The notes beneath the pieces were generated by a model. The model did no database searches, was not told the origin of the DNA, and worked only from the letters and a program-made list of their open reading frames with translations. A stretch of 64,000 nucleotides of DNA, taken from contig JAKAHY010000002.1 of the NCBI GenBank assembly GCA_021814695.1, forward strand, positions 8,920 to 72,919, given 5' to 3'. Numbering within the stretch: the first letter of the stretch is position 1; each line of letters starts with the position of its first letter. The translations under genes and the position numbers were made by a program. Source of the stretch: a bacterium (GTDB taxonomy: Bacteria; Patescibacteriota; Minisyncoccia; UBA6257; JAGOQP01). Positions 738 to 49,500 of the stretch are shown here, piece after piece.

Positions 738-1077
738 TGACAGCCTTTACTATTTCGGAGAAAACTTTCGGATACTTATTGGCAATTTCGGCCAACACTT
801 TTCTGTCCAGAGCGATGTTGTTTTTCTTTAGGGCATCTATAAATTTACTGTAAGTTGTTCCTTCGGCTCTGACTGCGGCGTTAAGCTGGGTTTGCCATAA
901 TGCGCGGTAGTTCCTTTTGTTTTCTTTTCTTCCTTTGAACATCCGGCTTTGAGCGTGCAGCAAAGCCTCTTTTGCCGCGCGTTCTTTTGACTTGCGGCCC
1001 CATCGGTACCCCTTAACTTTTTTTAGCAGCTTCTCTCTCTTTTTATGGGCGAGAGCTCCTCTTTTGACTCTTGTCAT
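733..1077 (-). CDS. rplT: 50S ribosomal protein L20
   Basis: MTRVKRG..HKKR..LKK.KGYRG....LW...LNAA.R, a canonical bL20 sequence; last gene of the infC-rpmI-rplT operon. Confidence 0.95.
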   Translation of the reverse strand: MTRVKRGALAHKKREKLLKKVKGYRWGRKSKERAAKEALLHAQSRMFKGRKENKRNYRALWQTQLNAAVRAEGTTYSKFIDALKKNNIALDRKVLAEIANKYPKVFSEIVKAVK

Positions 1078-1103
1078 AGCGTTTAGTAATTAGTAAATAA
1101 AAA

Positions 1104-3498: not shown

Positions 3499-5643
3499 AT
3501 GAAAAAATCTTCATTAATCGTGGTCATTTTGCTTGTTGTGGCAAGCGTAGGAATGACCGTCATCTTTTCAAATCAAGTGTCGATAAAGGGATTTCTATCG
3601 AGCGTTTATTCTACTGCATCAGGCAGAAATCATATACAGCTGGCAAACGCTCAGTCCTTGGGACAGGGGGTTGTAGTTTTTAAAGCGCAATTTGGCCATT
3701 TGGAAGCAACCGGCCAAGTTGTCTCCGGTATTTCCGGACTAGCGGGGCTGCCGGTGACAAAATTTGTTCCCGACAGAGACCTTTCGGATTCTGAAAAAAA
3801 GCAGGTTGAAGTAAACATCACCGAAGAGAACACCGTTTTCGGATTTATTGTGGCAAAAAACGTTTCATTAGGGCAGGGAATCGGTTTTAACATTCCCCAA
3901 GGAGAAGTTTATAACTACGGTTTTTATGTGAATTCCGACATCCTTCCTCAAGGATGGACATATAACTCTTCTTGCGTAGAGACGGGAGGAAATATTAAAT
4001 TATCTGCCGGCCAACAAAGCGAATGCACGATAGGTTTTTATCTGAAACCAACGCCTGCGCCGGTTACTCCTCCCGCTTCGACGTCCACTCCCGTCTCACC
4101 TCAGGAAGGAGCGTCAGGTACCGTTATTAGTGAAGATTCCGGTTCTGGATCGCTGCAGTTTGTAAAAAATATTTTGGACTTAAGTACGGGGTGGAAAAAC
4201 CCCGGATCGGATAAAATATTGGACGCAAAAATCGTTGAATTATACGGAAAGAAATTTCTTATTGTTTCGACTCAAAACAAACATTTGCTTGTTTACGATG
4301 CTTCAAACCAGTTTTCGCCGGTTCTTTTGAAAGATAATGATTTATCAGGCAGTAACGTGTCGGCGTTTTATCTTGTGGTTTTAGATAATTTCAATTACGT
4401 ATTTGCCTGGGGAGGAAACTCTGCCAACTACGGATCTTTTAAGATTGAACAAGACGGATCTGCGTCTCTGGTAAAAAGTTACAAACCTGACCAATATAGC
4501 GTTACTCAACCGAATTTGGTTTTCGGGTTGTTTAGAGGGTTAGACGGTAAAGCGTATGGATTTGGAGGGAACGGGGGCGATGGATGGCTAACTATTTATG
4601 ACGTGTCCGATCCGGCAAACATCAGCGAAATTGGATCATATCAAGATGGCTTAGTCGGGAATCACTGCGGCAATTATGGTCTGATTGGATTGGACAGGCC
4701 GCTTCAATGGAATACTTCTCAACAAGGGAACAAGCTTTATCTGGTAACTCATGCGGACCAGTGCGTCCAGCGGCTGCATACTTCCGGAGACGCCAGAATT
4801 TATATTTTTGACGTTTCTGATCCAAAAAATCCGCAGCTTTCCCATCAATATGAGCTTTCCGGTTCTTTTAACCACATACCTTCGGACGCGACTAAGGCCG
4901 AACAGACATTTCTTTTTGGCGGGATCGCCGACATTGCCGTTGATTCAAATTCGGGTAAGGTTTTTGATTTTTACAGGACGGTTTTTGATTGGCAGGGGCC
5001 ATCCTGGTCTCAGATAGCAAACATAGTGCATGGTACTTTGTTTAGATACAGAACCGGACTGGTCACTCTTTCACTGCAATCGGACGGTTCTCTAAAAGAA
5101 TTGTCGCGGGCTTTATTGTGCGAACAAAAGGGCCCAATGTATGATGGTGGCGGTCCGCAATATTATCGATGCGGCGACGTGGATGGAAACGACAAAAATA
5201 CCCAAGGCGGATATGATTATTCGGCAAGAAATTCTCAACAAAATTACAACGGAGTTTTTCTCCTCAGTGGGCCGGGAAATAGCGGTCAGGTGGGCTTACT
5301 AAGGAGTGATAATAGTTTTGTTGTCATTCCCGATACCGCCGGAGAGATGACTAAATTTAAGACGGCTATTAAAGATTCATCTTATTATTCGAATATCTAT
5401 AATCCCGCTATCAATGGTGTTGTGACCCAGGTTGACAGTAAAACATTTGCCATCTATCAATTTGATAGTTATTCGTTAAGCGTCGTTAAGGTTTTGTTGT
5501 CGCAATCTCTTGTGGGGGGATCGAAAAATCCCTCTCCTCCAGTGACCGGAGTTGCGCCTTCGGCAAACGTACCACTAACATCACCCGCATTTTCATTTAA
5601 TGCGCTCCTGAACATCTTCAGAAGGATACTTAACAACTACTAA
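3499..5643 (+). CDS. Cell-surface protein, paralog A: N-terminal signal-anchor, P/T-rich linker, LVIVD-like beta-propeller repeats, conserved C-terminal tail
   Basis: Repeats of the type LTIYDVSDPANISEIGSY and IYIFDVSDPKNPQLSHQY; N-terminal TM MKKSSLIVVILLVVASVGMTVIF; C-terminus ...SPAFSFNALLNIFRRILNNY. Confidence 0.8.
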   Translation: MKKSSLIVVILLVVASVGMTVIFSNQVSIKGFLSSVYSTASGRNHIQLANAQSLGQGVVVFKAQFGHLEATGQVVSGISGLAGLPVTKFVPDRDLSDSEKKQVEVNITEENTVFGFIVAKNVSLGQGIGFNIPQGEVYNYGFYVNSDILPQGWTYNSSCVETGGNIKLSAGQQSECTIGFYLKPTPAPVTPPASTSTPVSPQEGASGTVISEDSGSGSLQFVKNILDLSTGWKNPGSDKILDAKIVELYGKKFLIVSTQNKHLLVYDASNQFSPVLLKDNDLSGSNVSAFYLVVLDNFNYVFAWGGNSANYGSFKIEQDGSASLVKSYKPDQYSVTQPNLVFGLFRGLDGKAYGFGGNGGDGWLTIYDVSDPANISEIGSYQDGLVGNHCGNYGLIGLDRPLQWNTSQQGNKLYLVTHADQCVQRLHTSGDARIYIFDVSDPKNPQLSHQYELSGSFNHIPSDATKAEQTFLFGGIADIAVDSNSGKVFDFYRTVFDWQGPSWSQIANIVHGTLFRYRTGLVTLSLQSDGSLKELSRALLCEQKGPMYDGGGPQYYRCGDVDGNDKNTQGGYDYSARNSQQNYNGVFLLSGPGNSGQVGLLRSDNSFVVIPDTAGEMTKFKTAIKDSSYYSNIYNPAINGVVTQVDSKTFAIYQFDSYSLSVVKVLLSQSLVGGSKNPSPPVTGVAPSANVPLTSPAFSFNALLNIFRRILNNY

Positions 5644-5708: not shown

Positions 5709-8321
5709 AAAAAAACATTACTCATCGGGTTTATTGTGGTCGGCATTGTAAGCTTTTCGGCATTTACCGCGCATGCTCAGTCGGTCAATTATCTTAGTAA
5801 ATTTTTTGCAGATGTCTACGGAGCGTTTTTTGGGAATTCCCAAACGCAAAAAGTTGACGCCCAAACAGTGGGTAATGGAACACTTACTATTCATGCTCAG
5901 ATATGTCAGACGCTCGGGAATTTCGAAAATCCAAGCAGTGCGACCTGTTCTGGTACTCCTCGCGACCCCAATTCTACGGAGTCTCCGTTATTTGTTTATG
6001 ATGTCCAGCGCATAGTTGGGAATGGAGCGAGCGCTCAAGTTACCACAGTTCTTTCAGGTATCGGTCCCGGACAAAGTTATTCGTTACCGGCGAATACTCC
6101 AAACGCTAGTAATAATAACAGAGATGAGTACGTGATTGTGTTTAAGGGGGCACCGACAAATTATTTGTACGTGAGACAAGGAGGAAATTTTGATTTGCCC
6201 TATAAATTTTCAATTTCTTCCGGACAAAATACTCAAGTAAATATTCCTTATGTTATTTATACGGCGATTGAATCAACGGGTCCTGTTGGCACTACTGTTA
6301 CCGCCGATATTGTTGATGGCAATGGAAATTTTGTCAGAGCGCTGACGGCTTCAGAAATTCAATCGGTATCCTTTGACATCCAGCATTCGGTTCCGGCCAC
6401 CGGAGGATATGTCGGATCGCATGCGAACAATTTTGATACTCAAGTTTCTTCGGGAAAATTAAATACTTCATATCAGCTTGCGACCTATGTCCATTCCGGT
6501 TCAATTTTGACAAATATTAAGCCACCATCCGGTTACGTAGTCAGATCAATTAAGCCGGGAACATATTTTGATCCTACTGATGACGTTACTATTCATTTTA
6601 CCAAGTCTCCTGTTTCGTCTCAGGTTCAAAAAGTTGATCAAATGCTCTATGTTCCTAATGGAATTAGCTATGTAAAAAAAATAGCTCAAACATATTCGGA
6701 CAATGAATACAAATATTCGAATCTTGACGTTGATTTATTTGCTTATTATGGAAACAATAATCGTCCTTTTCCCTTGAACTGGACAGTTGCCAAATATTCG
6801 GGAGTTCCTTATTTGTTTATGAATGGAGCAGGAAAGATAGTTATTTATAATATTTCCGATCCTAAAAATCCCAAACAAGTTAGTGAATATGTTCTTTCCG
6901 GTTTGGAAAAATTTAATCAATACAAAGATCGTCAGGGAAATACTTATGGACAGTGTTCTCCTAACCAAGAAGGTACTCATGATTTTATAACTGGAGCCGG
7001 TAAAGTTTTTGCTCTTGATGATTCCCCTTATCTTTTGATTGACATTCAGAGACCGGGTGGGCCAGGCCCTGGAGGGACGGCAGTTTTGTCCTTAGATCCT
7101 TCAACTATGGCCATAACCGCCTATCCTCAATGGACCGAGTGTAACAGTGGTCAAGATACTCCCGGAACCGCTTTCGGAATGTATAAAGGAAGTGACGGAA
7201 ATACTTATTTTATTTCCCAATTCCCGAATAATGCATATGATACGGGTGGAGTAGATACCGGGAATATTGGTATTTACACAATCAATTCTGCTGGTATTGC
7301 CAATAAAGTTGTCGTTCTCAGCGGAATGTCCGGGATTGCTCCGAGTTTGGATTATTCTAATGGAACAATCTCTGTTGTTTCCGTTGGAAGTAAAAAATAT
7401 CTTATTGGTAATGGAAAATCATCTATCGCAAACATAAATTCGACCAGTGCACCAATTTATATTTACGATATTTCCAATCCAAAAAATATAATCAAAATCA
7501 ATCAACAGATCACGGTGTCTACGTCTGGGTCCGGCAGATTAAAAATTGACGAACAAGCCAATCGTATGTATGTTCAGTCATCCATTCCAAATCCTGCCGC
7601 AACATCAACTTCGTACACCATCCCCAAAACATTACCTATTTGGCAGGTATATGACTTGAGTGTTTTGCCCAGTACTCCAAAATTAATTGCTACTTATAAC
7701 AAACCAACCGACCTACTTAATTCAAGTCAAGTGAATGCTGATTTTTCTCAAATTACCAAGAGATTAAATATTGCATCGTCAGGTAATCTTGTGGATATAA
7801 ATAATTCTTCTTTCACTTACGGCGCCTACGGATATTCTTCTTCACTCCAGTTGATAAATGTTTCAAATAATTTAGCTTATATATCACTGTATACAAACGG
7901 AAAAAACCCTTGGGATACGATTGCCAATCAAGCCGGAGTAACGGACGGAAGCGAATACGGGACCAATGCTATTCAATTTATAGTTGACGTGTCCAATGCG
8001 TCCAGTCCCAAAATACTTGGAATGATATTCGGGCATACGGAATATTCTGCTTACGGACTTTCCGCCGGCGGATGGTTTGATGTTCCTCTTTACGGAAGTA
8101 TCTATAACTATAACGGATATATTTACCGAGCCAATTTCCGCATCGCTGATGTATGGAAATTGGGGAATCCTCCGGCCCAAAGTACGGGAGGTGCTGGAAG
8201 TGGGGCTGGTGCGAGCGGCACTGGAACTACCGAAGGAGGATCTGCGCCATCATCAGTTCAATCTCCATTTTCTTTCAGTTCTCTTTTGAAGATATTCCAG
8301 AGAGTGTTTAATAATCAATAA
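5709..8321 (+). CDS. Cell-surface protein, paralog B: cleavable signal peptide, LVIVD-like repeats, conserved C-terminal tail (the ORF track starts at 5697)
   Basis: Signal peptide MKKTLLIGFIVVGIVSFSAFTAHA|QS; repeats IVIYNISDPKNPKQVSEY and IYIYDISNPKNIIKI; G/S/T-rich linker; C-terminus ...SPFSFSSLLKIFQRVFNNQ. Confidence 0.8.
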   Translation, partial: KKTLLIGFIVVGIVSFSAFTAHAQSVNYLSKFFADVYGAFFGNSQTQKVDAQTVGNGTLTIHAQICQTLGNFENPSSATCSGTPRDPNSTESPLFVYDVQRIVGNGASAQVTTVLSGIGPGQSYSLPANTPNASNNNRDEYVIVFKGAPTNYLYVRQGGNFDLPYKFSISSGQNTQVNIPYVIYTAIESTGPVGTTVTADIVDGNGNFVRALTASEIQSVSFDIQHSVPATGGYVGSHANNFDTQVSSGKLNTSYQLATYVHSGSILTNIKPPSGYVVRSIKPGTYFDPTDDVTIHFTKSPVSSQVQKVDQMLYVPNGISYVKKIAQTYSDNEYKYSNLDVDLFAYYGNNNRPFPLNWTVAKYSGVPYLFMNGAGKIVIYNISDPKNPKQVSEYVLSGLEKFNQYKDRQGNTYGQCSPNQEGTHDFITGAGKVFALDDSPYLLIDIQRPGGPGPGGTAVLSLDPSTMAITAYPQWTECNSGQDTPGTAFGMYKGSDGNTYFISQFPNNAYDTGGVDTGNIGIYTINSAGIANKVVVLSGMSGIAPSLDYSNGTISVVSVGSKKYLIGNGKSSIANINSTSAPIYIYDISNPKNIIKINQQITVSTSGSGRLKIDEQANRMYVQSSIPNPAATSTSYTIPKTLPIWQVYDLSVLPSTPKLIATYNKPTDLLNSSQVNADFSQITKRLNIASSGNLVDINNSSFTYGAYGYSSSLQLINVSNNLAYISLYTNGKNPWDTIANQAGVTDGSEYGTNAIQFIVDVSNASSPKILGMIFGHTEYSAYGLSAGGWFDVPLYGSIYNYNGYIYRANFRIADVWKLGNPPAQSTGGAGSGAGASGTGTTEGGSAPSSVQSPFSFSSLLKIFQRVFNNQ

Positions 8322-8396: not shown

Positions 8397-10580
8397 ATGA
8401 AAAAATATTCATTAATTGTGATTATCTTACTTGTTGTTGCAAGTATAGGGATTACCGCTATCTTTTCAAGTCAAGTGTCGATAACCGGATTTCTTTTGAG
8501 CGTTTACTCAACTGTTTCGGGGAGCAATCAAATACAGAGAGTAAATGCACAAACGACAGGCCAAGGAACCATATTATTCCAAGGCCAATTCGGTCATCTT
8601 GAATCGACCGGAAAGGTCACTACCGGAATTTCGGGCTTATCCGGACTTCCGGTGATGAAATTTGTTAAAGACCGTGACCTATCTAGCGATGAAAAAAATC
8701 AGATTAGAGTGGATGTTATTGAACATAACACTCCTTTTGAATTTGTAGTTGCAAAAAATATTTCGCTTGGAGAGGGTGTTAATTTTAATATTCCCGTAGG
8801 TTCGACATATAGATATAGTTTTTATGTTCACCCCGACTCGATTCCCTCCGGATGGGTTTATTATTCCGGTTGTTTAGAGACCGATGGGAATGTTTCGGTA
8901 CTGGCCGGTCAGCAAAGTACTTGCAGCATAGGATTTTATTTAAAGCCCGAAACAATCTCACCCCCTCCGGTCACATCAACATCTACGATCACGTCTACTC
9001 CTTCGGTAGGTGTTTCGGGAACTGTTGTCGGTGAAGATGCCAGCGCAGGATCGTTGCAGTTTGTAAAAAACGTTTTGGATTTAAGCTCACAAAGAAAGGG
9101 CATTATTTATGGAGTTTTGGACGCAAGAACCGTTAATTTGTATGGAAAAAATCTTCTGATAGTTGCTAGAGGTGGAGCTTACTCTGCTACCACTCCAACC
9201 TGGCATATGCTTGTTTATGATATAACCGATCCGCTTGCCCCGGTTCTTTTGAAGGATAATGATATGTCCGGAAGTGGCATAATCTATAGTTCTCCAATGA
9301 CCGGTTTGGCAGTGCTTGATGGCTTTAATTATGTATTTGTCCGTGGAAATGTCGGTTACGGTTCGTTTAAAATTAATCAGGACGGAACTGCGTCTCTTGT
9401 GAAAAGCTATAAATATTCTGAAGTTCAGCAGATACAGACAGATTTAATCAGGGGATTGTTCAACGGTCTGGATGGAAATATATACGGCTACGGAGGGTTT
9501 GTGCAGGATGGAGGACTCGTGCTTTATAACGTTTCCGATCCCGCTAATATTATTCAAGTTGGAACGTATACTAATGGTCTTGAACCAGCGATTGCCATCT
9601 ATGGACAAATTGGATTGAATCGCCAGAGCACTTGGGGCGTTGTTAAAGAAGGAGGCAAACTTTATCTTATTGCTCATGCGGACCAGTTGGTTCTGCGCCT
9701 TCATACGGATTATGATGGAATGATTTATGTTTTTGATGTGTCCAATCCGGCAAGTCCGCAGCTTTCACATATCTATAAAATGTCCAGCTCCTTTAATCAC
9801 CTTCCTTCCGATATGACTTCGTATGAGAAGATGTTTCTTTACGGAGGAGAAGCTAATATATCGGTTGATCCAATATCAAATAGAGTATTTGATTTTTACA
9901 GAACGGTTTTTGATTGGCAGGGACCCAATCAGCTTAAGATAAAAGACATTCCTAAAGGAGCCTTGTTTCGTTATAGAAATGGAATAGCCGTTCTTTCAAT
10001 AGGAATCGATGGTTCTTTGAAATCAAGTTCCAGTAACATATTATTGTGCGAAAGAATAGCCATTCAAGATAATGGGACGTCAGGCGAAGATAAATGTGAT
10101 ACAAAGAGTCCCGAAACGGTTGGGGGATATTATAGTTCCAGTCTTTATGGAAACAGGAATCCTCAAGAAAATTATAACGGAGTATTTCTTCTTGGCGACG
10201 TGAATAATGTCGGACATGTAGGGCTGTTAAAAAGCGATGGTAGTTTTGTTATCATACCCGATCCAACCGGAGAAATGCTTAAATTCAAATCTGTCTTGGC
10301 TGACCCGTCGTATTATTCCGATCCTGGTTTTCGTTCGTCTCCAATCAATGGCATTGTCACTCAAGTTGATAGCAAAACCTTTGCAATATTTCAGATTGAT
10401 AATTATTCCATAAGTGTTACAAAGCTAAATCTATCACAATCCATAACGAGCGTAACACAAAAATCTTCGCCACCTACCACAAATGCCCCTAGTTCATTAA
10501 ATACATCATCTCCTACTCAGACTCCATTTTCCTTCAGCTCGCTCCTGAGAATATTTCAGAGGGTGTTCAATAGTCAGTAA
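8397..10580 (+). CDS. Cell-surface protein, paralog C (close paralog of A)
   Basis: N-terminal 230 aa nearly collinear with paralog A; repeats VLYNVSDPANIIQVGTY and IYVFDVSNPASPQLSHIY; C-terminus ...TPFSFSSLLRIFQRVFNSQ. Confidence 0.8.
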   Translation: MKKYSLIVIILLVVASIGITAIFSSQVSITGFLLSVYSTVSGSNQIQRVNAQTTGQGTILFQGQFGHLESTGKVTTGISGLSGLPVMKFVKDRDLSSDEKNQIRVDVIEHNTPFEFVVAKNISLGEGVNFNIPVGSTYRYSFYVHPDSIPSGWVYYSGCLETDGNVSVLAGQQSTCSIGFYLKPETISPPPVTSTSTITSTPSVGVSGTVVGEDASAGSLQFVKNVLDLSSQRKGIIYGVLDARTVNLYGKNLLIVARGGAYSATTPTWHMLVYDITDPLAPVLLKDNDMSGSGIIYSSPMTGLAVLDGFNYVFVRGNVGYGSFKINQDGTASLVKSYKYSEVQQIQTDLIRGLFNGLDGNIYGYGGFVQDGGLVLYNVSDPANIIQVGTYTNGLEPAIAIYGQIGLNRQSTWGVVKEGGKLYLIAHADQLVLRLHTDYDGMIYVFDVSNPASPQLSHIYKMSSSFNHLPSDMTSYEKMFLYGGEANISVDPISNRVFDFYRTVFDWQGPNQLKIKDIPKGALFRYRNGIAVLSIGIDGSLKSSSSNILLCERIAIQDNGTSGEDKCDTKSPETVGGYYSSSLYGNRNPQENYNGVFLLGDVNNVGHVGLLKSDGSFVIIPDPTGEMLKFKSVLADPSYYSDPGFRSSPINGIVTQVDSKTFAIFQIDNYSISVTKLNLSQSITSVTQKSSPPTTNAPSSLNTSSPTQTPFSFSSLLRIFQRVFNSQ

Positions 10581-30337: not shown

Positions 30338-30466
30338 GGGTGTTGACGGGGTAGGATGCGGGGTGGTCGAGGGGCTGCAAGCCCCTCGTGTTGGAAATTA
30401 TTCAAAACCGAGGGTTTTGAAGGAGCGAATATAATGAGCGACGTCCGATTTCCCGTTACCCGCTCA
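30336..30466 (+). repeat. tRNA-trailer structured element, copy E1, ending in a duplicate of the tRNA-Gly(GCC) 3' end
   Basis: GGGGTGGTCGAGGGGctgcaaGCCCCTCGTGTTGGAAATTA-TTCAAAACCgagGGTTTTGAAGGAG-CGAATATAATGAGCGACGTCCGATTTCCC followed by GTTACCCGCTCA (= tRNA 3' end). Confidence 0.6.
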
Positions 30467-30502: not shown

Positions 30503-30650
30503 TGTCCGCCCGGAAGGGAGTCTCACGTCGCTCCGACATTGCGTCGGAGCTCCCAAGACACCCTCGGTTTCTTGACGCTCCTCCGGAGCTTTTTCCTACA
30601 CGGGAGATTAAGCATCTCCCGACCCCTCTCTATTCAATTCCTTGTTGACG
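30503..30650 (-). repeat. tRNA-trailer structured element, copy E2 (minus strand), fused to a duplicate of the tRNA-Lys 3' end
   Basis: Minus strand GGAATTGAATAGAGAG-GGGTCGGGAGATgcttaATCTCCCGTGTAGGAAAAAG-CTCCggaGGAG-CGTCAAGAAACCGAGGGTGTCTTGGGAG-CTCCGACgcaatGTCGGAG-CGACGTGAGACTCCC-TTCCGGGCGGACA. Confidence 0.6.
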
Positions 30651-30689: not shown

Positions 30690-30826
30690 TGTCCGCCCGG
30701 AAGGGAATCTCACGTCGCTCCGACCTTGCGTCGGAGCTCCTTAAAACCATTCGGTTTTAATATTTCCTCCACGGAAAACCTTCGGTTTCCCGACCCCATC
30801 CGATTTGATTCCTTTACTGACGAATA
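30690..30826 (-). repeat. tRNA-trailer structured element, copy E3 (minus strand), fused to a second duplicate of the tRNA-Lys 3' end
   Basis: Minus strand GGAATCAAATCGGAT-GGGGTCGGGAAACCgaagGTTTTCCGTGGAGGAAATA-TTAAAACCgaatGGTTTTAA-GGAG-CTCCGACgcaagGTCGGAG-CGACGTGAGATTCCC-TTCCGGGCGGACA. Confidence 0.6.
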
Positions 30827-35544: not shown

Positions 35545-35680
35545 CCGGAAATTGAATCAGAAGGGGTCGGGGAACCTGTGGTTCCCCGTGTAGGAAAAAG
35601 TCCGCCCTGGGCGGACGTCAAGAAACCGAGGGTGTTTTGGGAGGAGTGAAACGACGACGTGAGATTCCCGGCAGCCCGAC
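35545..35680 (+). repeat. tRNA-trailer structured element, copy E4, fused to a duplicate of the tRNA-Pro 3' end (GATTCCCGGCAGCCCGAC)
   Basis: GGAAATTGAATCAGAAG-GGGTCGGGGAACCtgtGGTTCCCCGTGTAGGAAAAAG-TCCGCCCtggGGCGGA-CGTCAAGAAACCGAGGGTGTTTTGGGAGGAGTGAAACGACGACGTGAGATTCCC-GGCAGCCCGAC. It is followed by a second copy of the tRNA flank and the first 16 nt of a further element (GGAATTGAATCGGAAG). Confidence 0.6.
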
Positions 35681-35772
35681 GAAAATAAAATTCCCCTTTA
35701 GGGGAGTTTTATTTATGTTTGGGTTTCAGGGGAATTGAATCGGAAGAAAAATGTTCTTAAATTTGATATACT

Positions 35773-37359: not shown

Positions 37360-37406
37360 TATAGTGACATTGCATGAGTGTGGGTTCGGTTCTCGCTGGA
37401 TCTACC
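37360..37406 (+). other. tRNA-like 3' fragment (T-arm-like plus ..CTACCA) immediately downstream of tRNA-Ala(CGC)
   Basis: ATAGTGACATTGCATGAGTGTGGGTTCGGTTCTCGCTGGATCTACCA, which is not the 3' end of the adjacent tRNA. Confidence 0.3.
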
Positions 37407-37491
37407 AAAAACAAATCCCCCCTTAGTTATCTAGTTGACTTTCGGATAACTTTTGATTACTATATCAATATAAATTGATATAGTTTATCAT

Positions 37492-47960: not shown

Positions 47961-48061
47961 AGTCTTACGCTCACCCCCGACCCCCGCTTAAGAAACCTTC
48001 GGGTTTCTTACGTCCCTATTTTCCAACACGGGGGTTCGCATTCGACTCCCAAACTCACCCA
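47961..48061 (-). repeat. Divergent copy (E5) of the tRNA-trailer element between the two direct repeats
   Basis: Minus strand GGGAGTCGAATGCGAACCCCCGTGTTGGAAAATAGG-GACGTAAGAAACCcgaagGGTTTCTTAAG-CGGGGGTCGGGGGTGAGCGTAAGACTTCCCC followed by TTACCCGCTCA. Confidence 0.45.
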
Positions 48062-48188
48062 CAAAAAAATATCCCGACAAGTGAGGGGATTTTGTATAGT
48101 CCTTCTTCGCATAAAGCTTCGAAGGACACTTTTCGTCTGGCTTGCACTTCGTAGCTCGCCAGGGCGAAGAAGTGAGCGGGTAAGGGGA
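48061..48188. repeat. Direct repeat copy b (overlaps the 3' end of the intact tRNA-Gly(TCC))
   Basis: See copy a. Confidence 0.8.
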
Positions 48189-48941: not shown

Positions 48942-49014
48942 GGGCCGTTAGCTTAGTTGGTAGAGCGCCTCGTTTGCAACGAGGAGGTCACCGGTTCGAA
49001 TCCGGTACGGTCCA
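48942..49014 (+). tRNA. tRNA-Ala (TGC)
   Basis: GGGCCGT (G3·U70)-TA-GCTT-AGTTGGTA-GAGC-G-CCTCG-TTTGCAA-CGAGG-AGGTC-ACCGG-TTCGAAT-CCGGT-ACGGTCC-A. Confidence 0.9.
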
Positions 49015-49020
49015 CATAAC

Positions 49021-49047
49021 AAAAAAATTGCCTAGCGCAATTTTTTT
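49021..49047. terminator. Hairpin terminator after tRNA-Ala
   Basis: AAAAAAATTGCctagcGCAATTTTTTT. Confidence 0.55.
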
Positions 49048-49054
49048 GTTATGA

Positions 49055-49184
49055 TGAATCAGGGTCGGTTTGAATATTTAGGGGTCGGGGTATTTGTAAA
49101 TACCCCGAGTAAGAAAATTTGAGAAACCGTGGGTTTCTCACGAACGAATGAAATGAGTGAGGTGAGATTCCGGTACGGTCCACA
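49055..49184 (+). repeat. tRNA-trailer structured element, copy E6, fused to a duplicate of the tRNA-Ala(TGC) 3' end
   Basis: GGTTTGAATATTTAG-GGGTCGGGGTATTTgtaAATACCCCGAGTAAGAAAAT-TTGAGAAACCgtgGGTTTCTCA-CGAACGAATGAAATGAGTGAG-GTGAGATTCC-GGTACGGTCCACA. Confidence 0.6.
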
Positions 49185-49188
49185 AAAT

Positions 49189-49500
49189 ATGAAAAAATCA
49201 GAATATCTTTTGAGAAGTTTTATAAATGCGGCTGGAGTATTTGTTTATGTAGCATTGATTGCCTGGCTGGGTTTTAACAGCAAAACAATTTTTGGAGAAG
49301 CTCCAAGTTTTATTGCGCCATTGTTTATGCTTCTTTTGTTTGTCGTGTCGGCTTGTATAACGGGCCTATTGGTCTTGGGTAAGCCAATTCTTATGTATTT
49401 GAACAATCAGAGAAGAGAGGCCATTGTTTTATTTTCGGTTACTCTTAGCTGGCTCGTATTGTTTTTGGCGATTATCGCGACTGCTCTTGCCTTAAGATAA
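49189..49500 (+). CDS. Small membrane protein (3 TM); the ORF track's longer ORF (49129) runs through the repeat element
   Basis: MKKSEYLLRSFINAAGVFVYVALIAWLGF... Confidence 0.55.
   Translation: MKKSEYLLRSFINAAGVFVYVALIAWLGFNSKTIFGEAPSFIAPLFMLLLFVVSACITGLLVLGKPILMYLNNQRREAIVLFSVTLSWLVLFLAIIATALALR

Follow-up and report, generated by a model that had tools for sequence, protein, structure and literature searches.

The tRNA-Ala(TGC) locus

Behind the tRNA-Ala(TGC) gene of a Patescibacteria contig lies a short inserted element, here called E6, which is one copy of a repeated element with a conserved core. The locus is part of a 64,000-nucleotide (nt) stretch of DNA, the window, whose positions serve as coordinates unless another source is named. 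The tRNA gene (48942..49015, + strand; called by ARAGORN and by Rfam RF00005 with 72.9 bits) is complete, encodes no CCA and is identical in sequence to that of the relative L130. The first copy of a direct repeat, TCCGGTACGGTCCACA (49001..49016, +), spans the end of the T-loop, the 3' strands of the T-stem and acceptor stem, the discriminator and the dinucleotide CA.

An AT-rich hairpin of about 15 bp with a run of seven T residues, TAACAAAAAAATTGC/GCAATTTTTTTGTTA (49016..49052, +), comes next and belongs to the inserted DNA, being missing at the empty sites of the relatives L130 and L134. It is followed by a degenerate 5' arm and spacer with a partial duplication of the 5' end of the core (GAATCAGGGTCGG, then TTTGAATATTTAGGGGTCGG; 49053..49080, +), so that the 5' region after the hairpin reads GATGAATCAGGGTCGGTTTGAATATTTA, and the string GGTTTGAATATTTAG is located at 49067-49081. 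The conserved core of 87 nt (49075..49161, +) begins with GGGGTCGGGG, then a hairpin, and also contains the string GTGAGATTCC; its parts, all on the + strand, are the spacer, GGGGTC (49081-49086), the helix P2 (49087-49106), the joiner GAGTAAGAAAATTT (49107-49120), the helix P3 (49121-49139) and the helix P4 with tandem G.A pairs (49140-49161). The T-loop-like heptamer GTGAGAT (49162..49168, +) forms the 3' end of the element in place of GTTCGAA and recurs at other tRNAs and in other genomes (L060, L066, L112, L088, L084). The second copy of the direct repeat (49169..49184, +) is the displaced native 3' end of the tRNA, to which the native flank CAAAAT is still attached. The two repeats enclose 152 bp, and the insertion amounts to about 170 bp overall.

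An earlier note on this DNA, made from the sequence alone, had described a duplicated tRNA 3' end at this place. The 16-nt repeat is exact and occurs exactly twice; when up to two mismatches are allowed, the same two sites remain the only ones in the 64 kb, where 0.01 would be expected by chance, and none of 100 shuffles gives two such matches. The sequence that precedes the repeat is GGTTCGAA in the tRNA and GGTGAGAT in the element, which places the start of identity inside the T-loop, where the note had put the junction. The hairpin, which the same note took for a terminator, is present, but a consensus terminator scan did not flag it because it is GC-poor, and a terminator role is only plausible.

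Further copies in the window

The core was modelled with a covariance model, R1, built from 20 seed copies, which include E6, E1 and E2 and leave out E3, E4 and E5. The RNAalifold consensus of the seed alignment missed P3 through misalignment, and the structure (P2, P3 and the base of P4) was therefore set by hand. A search of the window with R1, run with filters off, finds exactly six cores, the next match having an E-value of 0.03, and E6 scores 81.4 bits (E = 7e-21) as a member of the seed. All six sit behind a tRNA gene on the same strand and are followed by a copy of the 3' end of that tRNA, so the architecture that had been described as common to several loci is indeed shared.

E1 (30357..30442, +; 83.7 bits, seed member) lies behind tRNA-Gly(GCC), and E2 (30714..30803, -; 59.9 bits, seed member), which has an orthologous copy in L142, lies behind tRNA-Lys(CTT) with E3 in tandem after it (30527..30632, -; 44.1 bits, outside the seed). 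E4 (35557..35655, +; 45.7 bits, outside the seed) is found behind tRNA-Pro(CGG), and E5 (47966..48062, -; 19.5 bits), a circularly permuted core flanked by a perfect repeat of 123 nt, behind tRNA-Gly(TCC). No element is present behind the tRNA-Arg, tRNA-Ala(CGC), tRNA-Ser or transfer-messenger RNA (tmRNA) genes of the window, as read at these loci.

Fragments occur at two further places. The string GGGGAATTGAATCGGAAG (35728-35745), which adjoins the terminator following E4, is an orphan 5' arm and spacer of a further copy without a core, and a stray fragment resembling a tRNA 3' end (GTGGGTTCGGTTCTCGCTGGATCTACCA), likewise coreless, lies after tRNA-Ala(CGC) at 37380-37420. Between 30228 and 30938, three elements separate tRNA-Lys from tRNA-Gly(GCC), and the latter is inverted with respect to the former. 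In the element-free relatives L140 (78% identical; positions 1586-1747) and L141 (67%; positions 3986-4178), the two genes form a same-strand tandem, 15-46 nt apart. Comparison of the two orders shows that the elements coincide with a local inversion.

Structure of the core and its arms

On the tRNA strand, the unit consists of a locus-specific arm X' of 12-20 nt, a purine spacer, GGGGUC, P2, the joiner GUGKAGGAAAAYAG, an optional hairpin P2b, P3, the motif RGGAG-optional hairpin-CGAC that makes up P4, and X, the start of the direct repeat. P3 is typically UUAGAAACC-GWG-GGUUUCUAA, with nine base pairs and a conserved loop, and P4 is a helix with tandem G.A/A.G pairs. The junctions hold the conserved nucleotides; P2b and P4 vary in length and may be missing. 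The 3' end of the element resembles a T-arm (GGGUUCGA, GAGUUCGAU or the recurrent variant GUGAGAU).

In an alignment of 101 copies, which was fitted to R1 itself, 87% of the paired cells can pair as against 70% in shuffles, and 364 cells carry double changes as against 105. Compensatory change is seen in 19 of the 21 pairs, all slid controls collapse, and P2 and P3 covary strongly. E6 contributes an example in P4, where GGAGC/GCGAC of E1 is replaced by CGAAC/GUGAG through compensatory changes (G-C to C-G and G-C to A-U) that keep the G.A pairs. Its P2 is identical to that of L111, a copy at tRNA-Gln in another genome, and the core of E6 has not decayed.

Of 97 cores, 79 fold better as the sense strand than as the antisense strand (p = 6e-12), as do 44 of 68 arms, and G.U pairs in P2 are more numerous than non-pairs. 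Both observations favour an RNA, or a single-stranded DNA, of tRNA polarity, and transcription of the core on the tRNA strand is the most likely case. In 45 of 52 copies, GGGGUC is preceded by the same nucleotide that stands fourth in P2; the resulting mirror repeat, xGGG-GUC-GGGx, is a hint of a tertiary contact. An alternative pairing, between the spacer and the 3' strand of P2, was rejected because its register does not fit.

Minimum-energy folds close the whole unit by pairing X' with X, and this flank duplex has a median of -16.4 kcal/mol, compared with -10.8 kcal/mol for flanks of mismatched loci (p = 2e-12). The arms of E1, E3 and E4 pair best with their own flank or with the flank of their own tRNA species. 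E6 does not; its arm forms only about 5 bp with the downstream repeat (GAATC:GATTC), and its pairing of -9.4 kcal/mol shows no preference for its own flank. The closing stem of E6 has decayed and is almost lost, and the core was kept. A further proposal, that the 5' part mimics the 5' strand of the acceptor stem, was dropped: the apparent pairing in E6 is due to the invariant GGGGTCGG, and it fails for the Lys, Pro and Gly copies.

These arms bear on two explanations of the unit as a functional RNA gene. According to the first, which is improbable, the unit is a guide or bridge RNA whose arm and repeat guide a nuclease or recombinase encoded in trans to conserved sites, among them the T-loop region of tRNAs, in a form of RNA-guided homing. 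The layout is suggestive, in that a constant scaffold is flanked at fixed positions by target-matching, locus-specific segments, the arm of non-tRNA copies ends exactly at the junction of core and X, and the matched segment adjoins the universal T-loop, the place expected for a target- or protospacer-adjacent motif (TAM/PAM). Omega RNAs of IS200/605 elements and homing CRISPR RNAs of type V-K CRISPR-associated transposons (CAST) match flanking or tRNA sequences, and they share with the element a constant scaffold adjoining a 12-20-nt target match, often a tRNA gene. In contrast to these systems, no effector gene lies near the element: no tnpB, iscB, cas12, cas12k or IS110-type gene is recognisable by eye in the window or recurs in the clusters of neighbouring open reading frames (ORFs). 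No Rfam omega-RNA model matches either, and the intact target beside the element would be cut by an active nuclease. Moreover, arm and repeat are sense and antisense copies that pair with each other, and in E6 and other copies of the window the cognate-specific pairing amounts to only 4-5 nt.

It is very improbable, as the second explanation has it, that the unit encodes a small tRNA-like RNA and that RNase Z, RNase P or the CCA-adding enzyme matures its 3' end. The last 16 nt do correspond to the 3' strands of T-stem and acceptor stem plus the discriminator, and the duplex of arm and repeat, where present, could mimic an acceptor/T-arm minihelix. However, these 3' strands are the only tRNA parts present: there is no cloverleaf, ARAGORN calls no tRNA over any of the six elements, and a permissive Rfam search of the E1-E3 region gives no tRNA-like match, which speaks against the tRNA-like 3' end for RNase Z or RNase P suggested in the earlier note. 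A minihelix with a T-loop is not found in E6, whose T-loop is replaced by GTGAGAT and whose arm pairs over about 5 bp; elsewhere the T-loop is replaced in the same way or is fully base-paired, in most copies the repeat segment is paired in a plain duplex with the antisense 5' arm, and many arms do not derive from tRNAs. Reading of the locus L113 also led to the rejection of a tRNA-like RNA encoded by the opposite strand.

Circular permutation

E5 differs from the other copies of the window in its order, which runs from the 3' strand of P2 over the joiner, P3, a short linker and GGGGUC to the 5' strand of P2. A metagenome scan for the permuted order gave at least 120 matches, and about 41 of those listed are genuine. 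P2 of the genuine copies forms the closing stem, which is open, covaries and measures 8-11 bp; a linker of 4-8 nt closes the side of P4 and the arms. Some carry arms of tRNA type, and others abut the 3' end of an antisense tRNA gene. About 9-11 of these roughly 41 copies among the matches listed end 7-18 nt before a start codon, and GGGGRAUU stands in the closing stem of copies that adjoin the start codons of bL22, bL35, bL9, PyrG and pyrophosphatase, identified by eye. The existence of two natural topologies speaks for a folded RNA being conserved rather than a linear DNA site.

Such permutation raises the question of catalysis. An unlikely though not negligible explanation is that the core is a new self-cleaving ribozyme or self-processing RNA that cuts read-through transcripts at gene boundaries, its copies being kept for that purpose and its mobility being secondary. 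Natural circular permutation is typical of hammerhead and twister ribozymes, and theta ribozymes, which resemble those of hepatitis delta virus (HDV), adjoin phage tRNAs and provide a precedent. The element shares with these three classes conserved junctions, variable or optional helices (here P2b and P4), permuted forms that are common, positions at gene boundaries, right behind tRNAs or 7-18 nt before start codons, and occurrence as repeated elements. It differs from them in that no known ribozyme model in Rfam matches its sequence or structure, either at the gathering threshold over the whole window or, in the regions scanned permissively, at E <= 10; nor can any position be put forward as the site of a predicted self-cleavage. 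Locus-specific arms and duplicated gene ends would also be superfluous for a processing signal, and to our knowledge no ribozyme class has duplicated target ends.

Distribution and target genes

An exact-pattern scan of one genome per species yielded at least 120 stretches, about two-thirds of them from Patescibacteria, namely Saccharibacteria and many lineages of Parcubacteria, the rest being chance matches in high-GC genomes. With R1, 101 copies were found in 88 sources, nearly all of them Patescibacteria. Their cores are 90-140 nt long and the whole elements 130-250 bp; the repeats measure 9 to 123 nt, lie about 60-250 nt apart and in several copies terminate in the T-tract of a terminator. 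Rfam 15, searched at the gathering threshold over the whole window, reports only eight tRNAs and the tmRNA, and a permissive scan (E <= 10) of the E1-E3 region and of the 'type B' element described below gives no match of the elements to a known family. Literature searches found no description of the element, a paper on Patescibacteria tRNA introns (PMC13011429) does not mention it, and 2.9 million viral contigs contain only four matches at chance level and no real copies. The family of small elements that resemble folded RNAs is therefore apparently undescribed.

A tRNA gene on the same strand lies within 150 nt upstream in 38 of the 101 copies, and one on the opposite strand in none. In 34 copies, involving 15 amino-acid species, the core is followed by a repetition of 9 nt or more of the tRNA 3' end. 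In these 34 copies, all from other genomes, the repeat starts 11-24 nt from the tRNA 3' end, mostly 14-18 nt, and the T-loop junction seen at E6 is thus a rule of the family.

Other copies are hosted by the 3' ends of protein genes, which were named by reading the translated sequence: EF-G (L018), probably bL28 (L044), a histidine kinase (L092) and a Mur-ligase-like protein (L098). Here the repeat extends from the insertion point to the stop codon; over its first 45-63 nt the two copies do not differ, and in the last codons they show synonymous differences alone (e.g. CGT/AGA for Arg and TGA/TAG for stop). Such synonymous differences indicate that both copies evolved as functional gene ends, which would fit an element that brings along a replacement gene end from another lineage. 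A conserved mini-ORF (MADANRAFAHFA / MAEANRAFAHFAW) was also seen directly upstream of cores in two unrelated genomes (L110, about 1040-1080, minus strand; L018, about 7830-7870, minus strand), where the repeat consists of the final codons of this mini-ORF, which pair with the 5' arm.

Empty sites and mobility

Relatives identified by way of the neighbouring proteins have the same gene order as the window, with a NUDIX gene, tRNA-Gly(TCC), a gene for a protein of 204 amino acids (aa) and tRNA-Ala(TGC), and give no match to R1. At the empty sites L130, L131/L132 and L134, the gene order is kept and core, hairpin and repeat are missing. In L130, whose neighbouring gene is 72% identical, tRNA-Ala is followed by 36 nt and then by the next gene, without hairpin, arm or repeat; in L134, it is followed by CAAAAT and, 49 nt later, by the same 103-aa gene as in the window. 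Element-free tRNA-Ala genes in the same gene order identify E6 as an insertion, and the CAAAAT flank, common to L134 and the second repeat copy of the window, marks the downstream copy as the original end of the tRNA. The upstream repeat copy and the hairpin may either have been carried by the element or have been newly made. An initial search of metagenomes turned up no relatives of the 204-aa neighbour, and exact look-ups of the 204-aa product and of the 123-aa product annotated downstream of E6 return the same strain only, always with the element.

In the more distant relative L142 (59%), tRNA-Lys is followed by a copy of E2 type whose 50-nt repeat takes in the terminator. Compared with E2 of the window, this copy shows 87% identity overall, or about 95% when P4 is left out, and has a compensatory change in P3; the tRNA-Lys beside it is 85% identical and the gene next to it 66%. 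This identity points either to horizontal spread or to very strong constraint.

The ORFs of the window, surveyed by eye without a hidden Markov model scan, look like housekeeping genes. Clustering of the neighbouring ORFs of 77 loci gave translation GTPases (13 of 77) as the only recurring family. A single locus, L072 (1606-3290), has a recombinase between tRNA and core: behind tRNA-Met come a large serine recombinase, truncated at its N-terminus and encoded on the opposite strand, then a terminator, the core and a T-arm-like repeat.

This locus is relevant to a very improbable explanation, namely that E6 is the attL/attR attachment-site scar of a phage or integrative island that an integrase inserted into tRNA-Ala and that was later deleted down to its ends. 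A direct repeat of a tRNA 3' end with an intact upstream tRNA is the typical remainder of integrase insertion, and E6 has both, together with a junction in the T-loop; the recombinase of L072 could be read in the same way. Yet one and the same core is found after 15 tRNA species as well as at several protein genes, and its repeats are separated by only about 60-250 nt. No integrase lies nearby and no distant repeat encloses cargo, L072 being ambiguous, and a scar would explain neither the lack of real copies in viral contigs nor the RNA-type covariation of the core.

GIY-YIG nuclease genes were considered as partners of the element and discarded, since they lie near cores in only four loci and no link was established. 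GIY-YIG cassettes (ORFs of 83-87 aa, preceded by hairpins such as CTCCGAC...GTCGGAG) occur on the 5' side of tRNA-Ala(TGC) in relatives (L128, 3615-3697; L129, 778-1133; L134, 700-1090), with a duplicated tRNA 5' fragment upstream and the complete tRNA downstream; the two tRNA parts of L134 are different alleles. The window has a GIY-YIG ORF just downstream of the tmRNA (2291-2530, -), and the region between them (2531-2671, -) contains CTTCGCC..GGC..CGWAGTGCAAGC and the hairpin GTCCTYCG-AGCTTTATGCGAAG-RAGGRC. The same motif makes up the 108-nt trailer of tRNA-Gly(TCC) in the window (48066-48173, -) and also follows tRNA-Gly in L128, L130 and L142 (1300-1380, minus strand, in the last); the trailer is possibly an orphan upstream region of GIY-YIG cassettes.

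At tRNA-Gly(TCC), where the window has E5, relatives carry a second, unrelated core named 'type B' (...GCCGGAGCATGTTCCGCCCAGCAGAGCGGAACGCGAGGCGG...GCAAAAATTTAGTCGAGACC; L130, 2690-2825, minus strand; L128, 2550-2690, minus strand). Its layout is the same, with an arm that is the reverse complement of tRNA sequence, then the core and a second copy of the tRNA 3' end, and it has no Rfam match.

A probable protein-less mobile element

E6 is an insertion of about 170 bp of a Patescibacteria-wide family of protein-less elements with a folded core, and taken together, the observations make it probable, on balance, that this family is selfish and spreads horizontally. The sequences directly show the insertion, the family, the sense-strand fold, the strict polarity towards tRNAs, the locus-specific arms, the gene-preserving duplication and a patchy occurrence among relatives. 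The insertion keeps the tRNA intact, with the complete gene and an element-borne hairpin upstream and the displaced original 3' end downstream. The core folds into a multi-helix junction of P2, an optional P2b, P3 and P4, joined by invariant purine-rich strands and in most copies closed by a stem of the target-antisense 5' arm and the displaced repeat. The selfish module would use its T-arm-like end and its arms to recombine at highly conserved sequences, which are the T-arm in tRNAs and the 3' end in EF-G, bL28 and further genes, would leave the work to host or trans-acting functions, and would supply a replacement gene end as tRNA-integrating islands do, though without an enzyme of its own. 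From the sequences we infer both that the RNA is made and that movement takes place by recombination at the T-arm-like end and the arms; the best guess for a role of the RNA would be self-processing or transcript 'punctuation'.

Several points weigh against this account. No recombinase, transposase, reverse transcriptase or nuclease is consistently found near copies, neither among the 77 clustered loci nor, by eye, among the ORFs of the window, and a search for a cargo-bearing parent, with the repeat more than 350 nt upstream, yielded only the ambiguous L072. Repeats of 9-123 nt fit neither a target-site duplication of fixed length nor a single att core, and the account leaves unexplained how the antisense 5' arm arises and is rewritten for each target. 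The high identity of E2 and its counterpart in L142 could be due to strong purifying selection and not to recent transfer. The fitting of the covariation alignment to R1 favours the structure, the strand asymmetry would equally suit single-stranded DNA, and E6, lacking its closing stem, may be inactive.

A bolder version, for which the chances are rather low, regards arm, core and repeat as a new class of catalytic or guide RNA, self-processing or self-targeting, that exists in two circular permutations, has its arms rewritten for each target and would enable a protein-less element to home into the T-loops of tRNAs and further universally conserved gene ends across Patescibacteria. That the core is a new class of functional RNA of some kind has a non-trivial chance.

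Among known systems, tRNA-integrating islands and prophages are alike in inserting into the 3' part of tRNA genes with a junction in the T-loop, an intact upstream tRNA and the displaced 3' end as direct repeat, and they too use 3' ends of protein genes and supply a replacement end with synonymous differences. However, islands measure kilobases, encode an integrase and have one att core per family, whereas the element measures 130-250 bp, lacks integrase and cargo, places one core at several protein genes and at 15 or more tRNA species, bears an antisense arm specific to the locus and is absent from viral contigs. MITEs (miniature inverted-repeat transposable elements), Rickettsia palindromic elements, Neisseria Correia elements and REPINs are also short, non-coding, multi-copy and hairpin-forming, insert between genes or at gene ends without destroying genes and can supply terminators or processing sites. 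MITE-type elements have conserved terminal inverted repeats and a duplication of fixed length, in contrast to the locus-specific ends, the conserved covarying interior, the repeats of varying length and the circular permutation seen here. We know of no system that combines a covarying fold outside Rfam, two circular permutations, site-matching arms and gene-preserving insertion at tRNAs and core translation genes.

The genomes of Patescibacteria are tiny, yet these 64 kb hold six copies, and the core spans the range from Saccharibacteria to Parcubacteria; the element is also a marker for horizontal exchange within the group. Should the RNA be catalytic or guide-like, it would represent a new class of ribozyme or of RNA-guided mobility in an uncultivated phylum. 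Even as selfish DNA only, the element explains mis-called ORF starts, such as the one behind E6, as well as contigs that end at or inside a copy (L126, L127), and it coincides with local rearrangements around tRNA genes.

The downstream gene

The ORF annotated behind E6 (49129-49500, +; 123 aa) overlaps the element, and an earlier proposal had moved its start to the ATG at 49189, which gives a membrane protein of 103 aa (49189..49500, +). Nearly all of the 120 homologues listed are 101-109 aa long, and most cover no more than about 84% of the 123-aa query, which identifies ATG 49189 as the real start. An exact look-up of the 103-aa product returned no match. E6 ends 4 nt upstream of this ATG, which is not preceded by a sequence like that of Shine and Dalgarno (SD).

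This proximity might suggest a cis-acting expression module, with a terminator or insulator upstream and a leader, or a structure that hides the ribosome-binding site, for the downstream gene. The hairpin with its T-run behind the tRNA, the repeats that often end in terminator T-tracts and the permuted copies that end shortly before start codons would agree with such a role. It has little probability, given that the downstream genes are mutually unrelated, many copies face convergent genes or tRNAs, ATG 49189 lacks an SD-like sequence and the same genes of relatives do without the element. The downstream genes also have no common gene set or pathway of the kind that would mark a riboswitch.

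Other features of the window

Paralogous genes for proteins of about 720 aa lie at 3499-5643 and 8397-10580, with about 70-76% DNA identity and near-identical upstream regions (repeat families D1, D10, D11, D15 and D20). They flank a third large gene for a secreted protein. The tag predicted for the tmRNA (2672-2988, -), EAYPRKALSYP, looks atypical, and the resume codon given by ARAGORN may be wrong.

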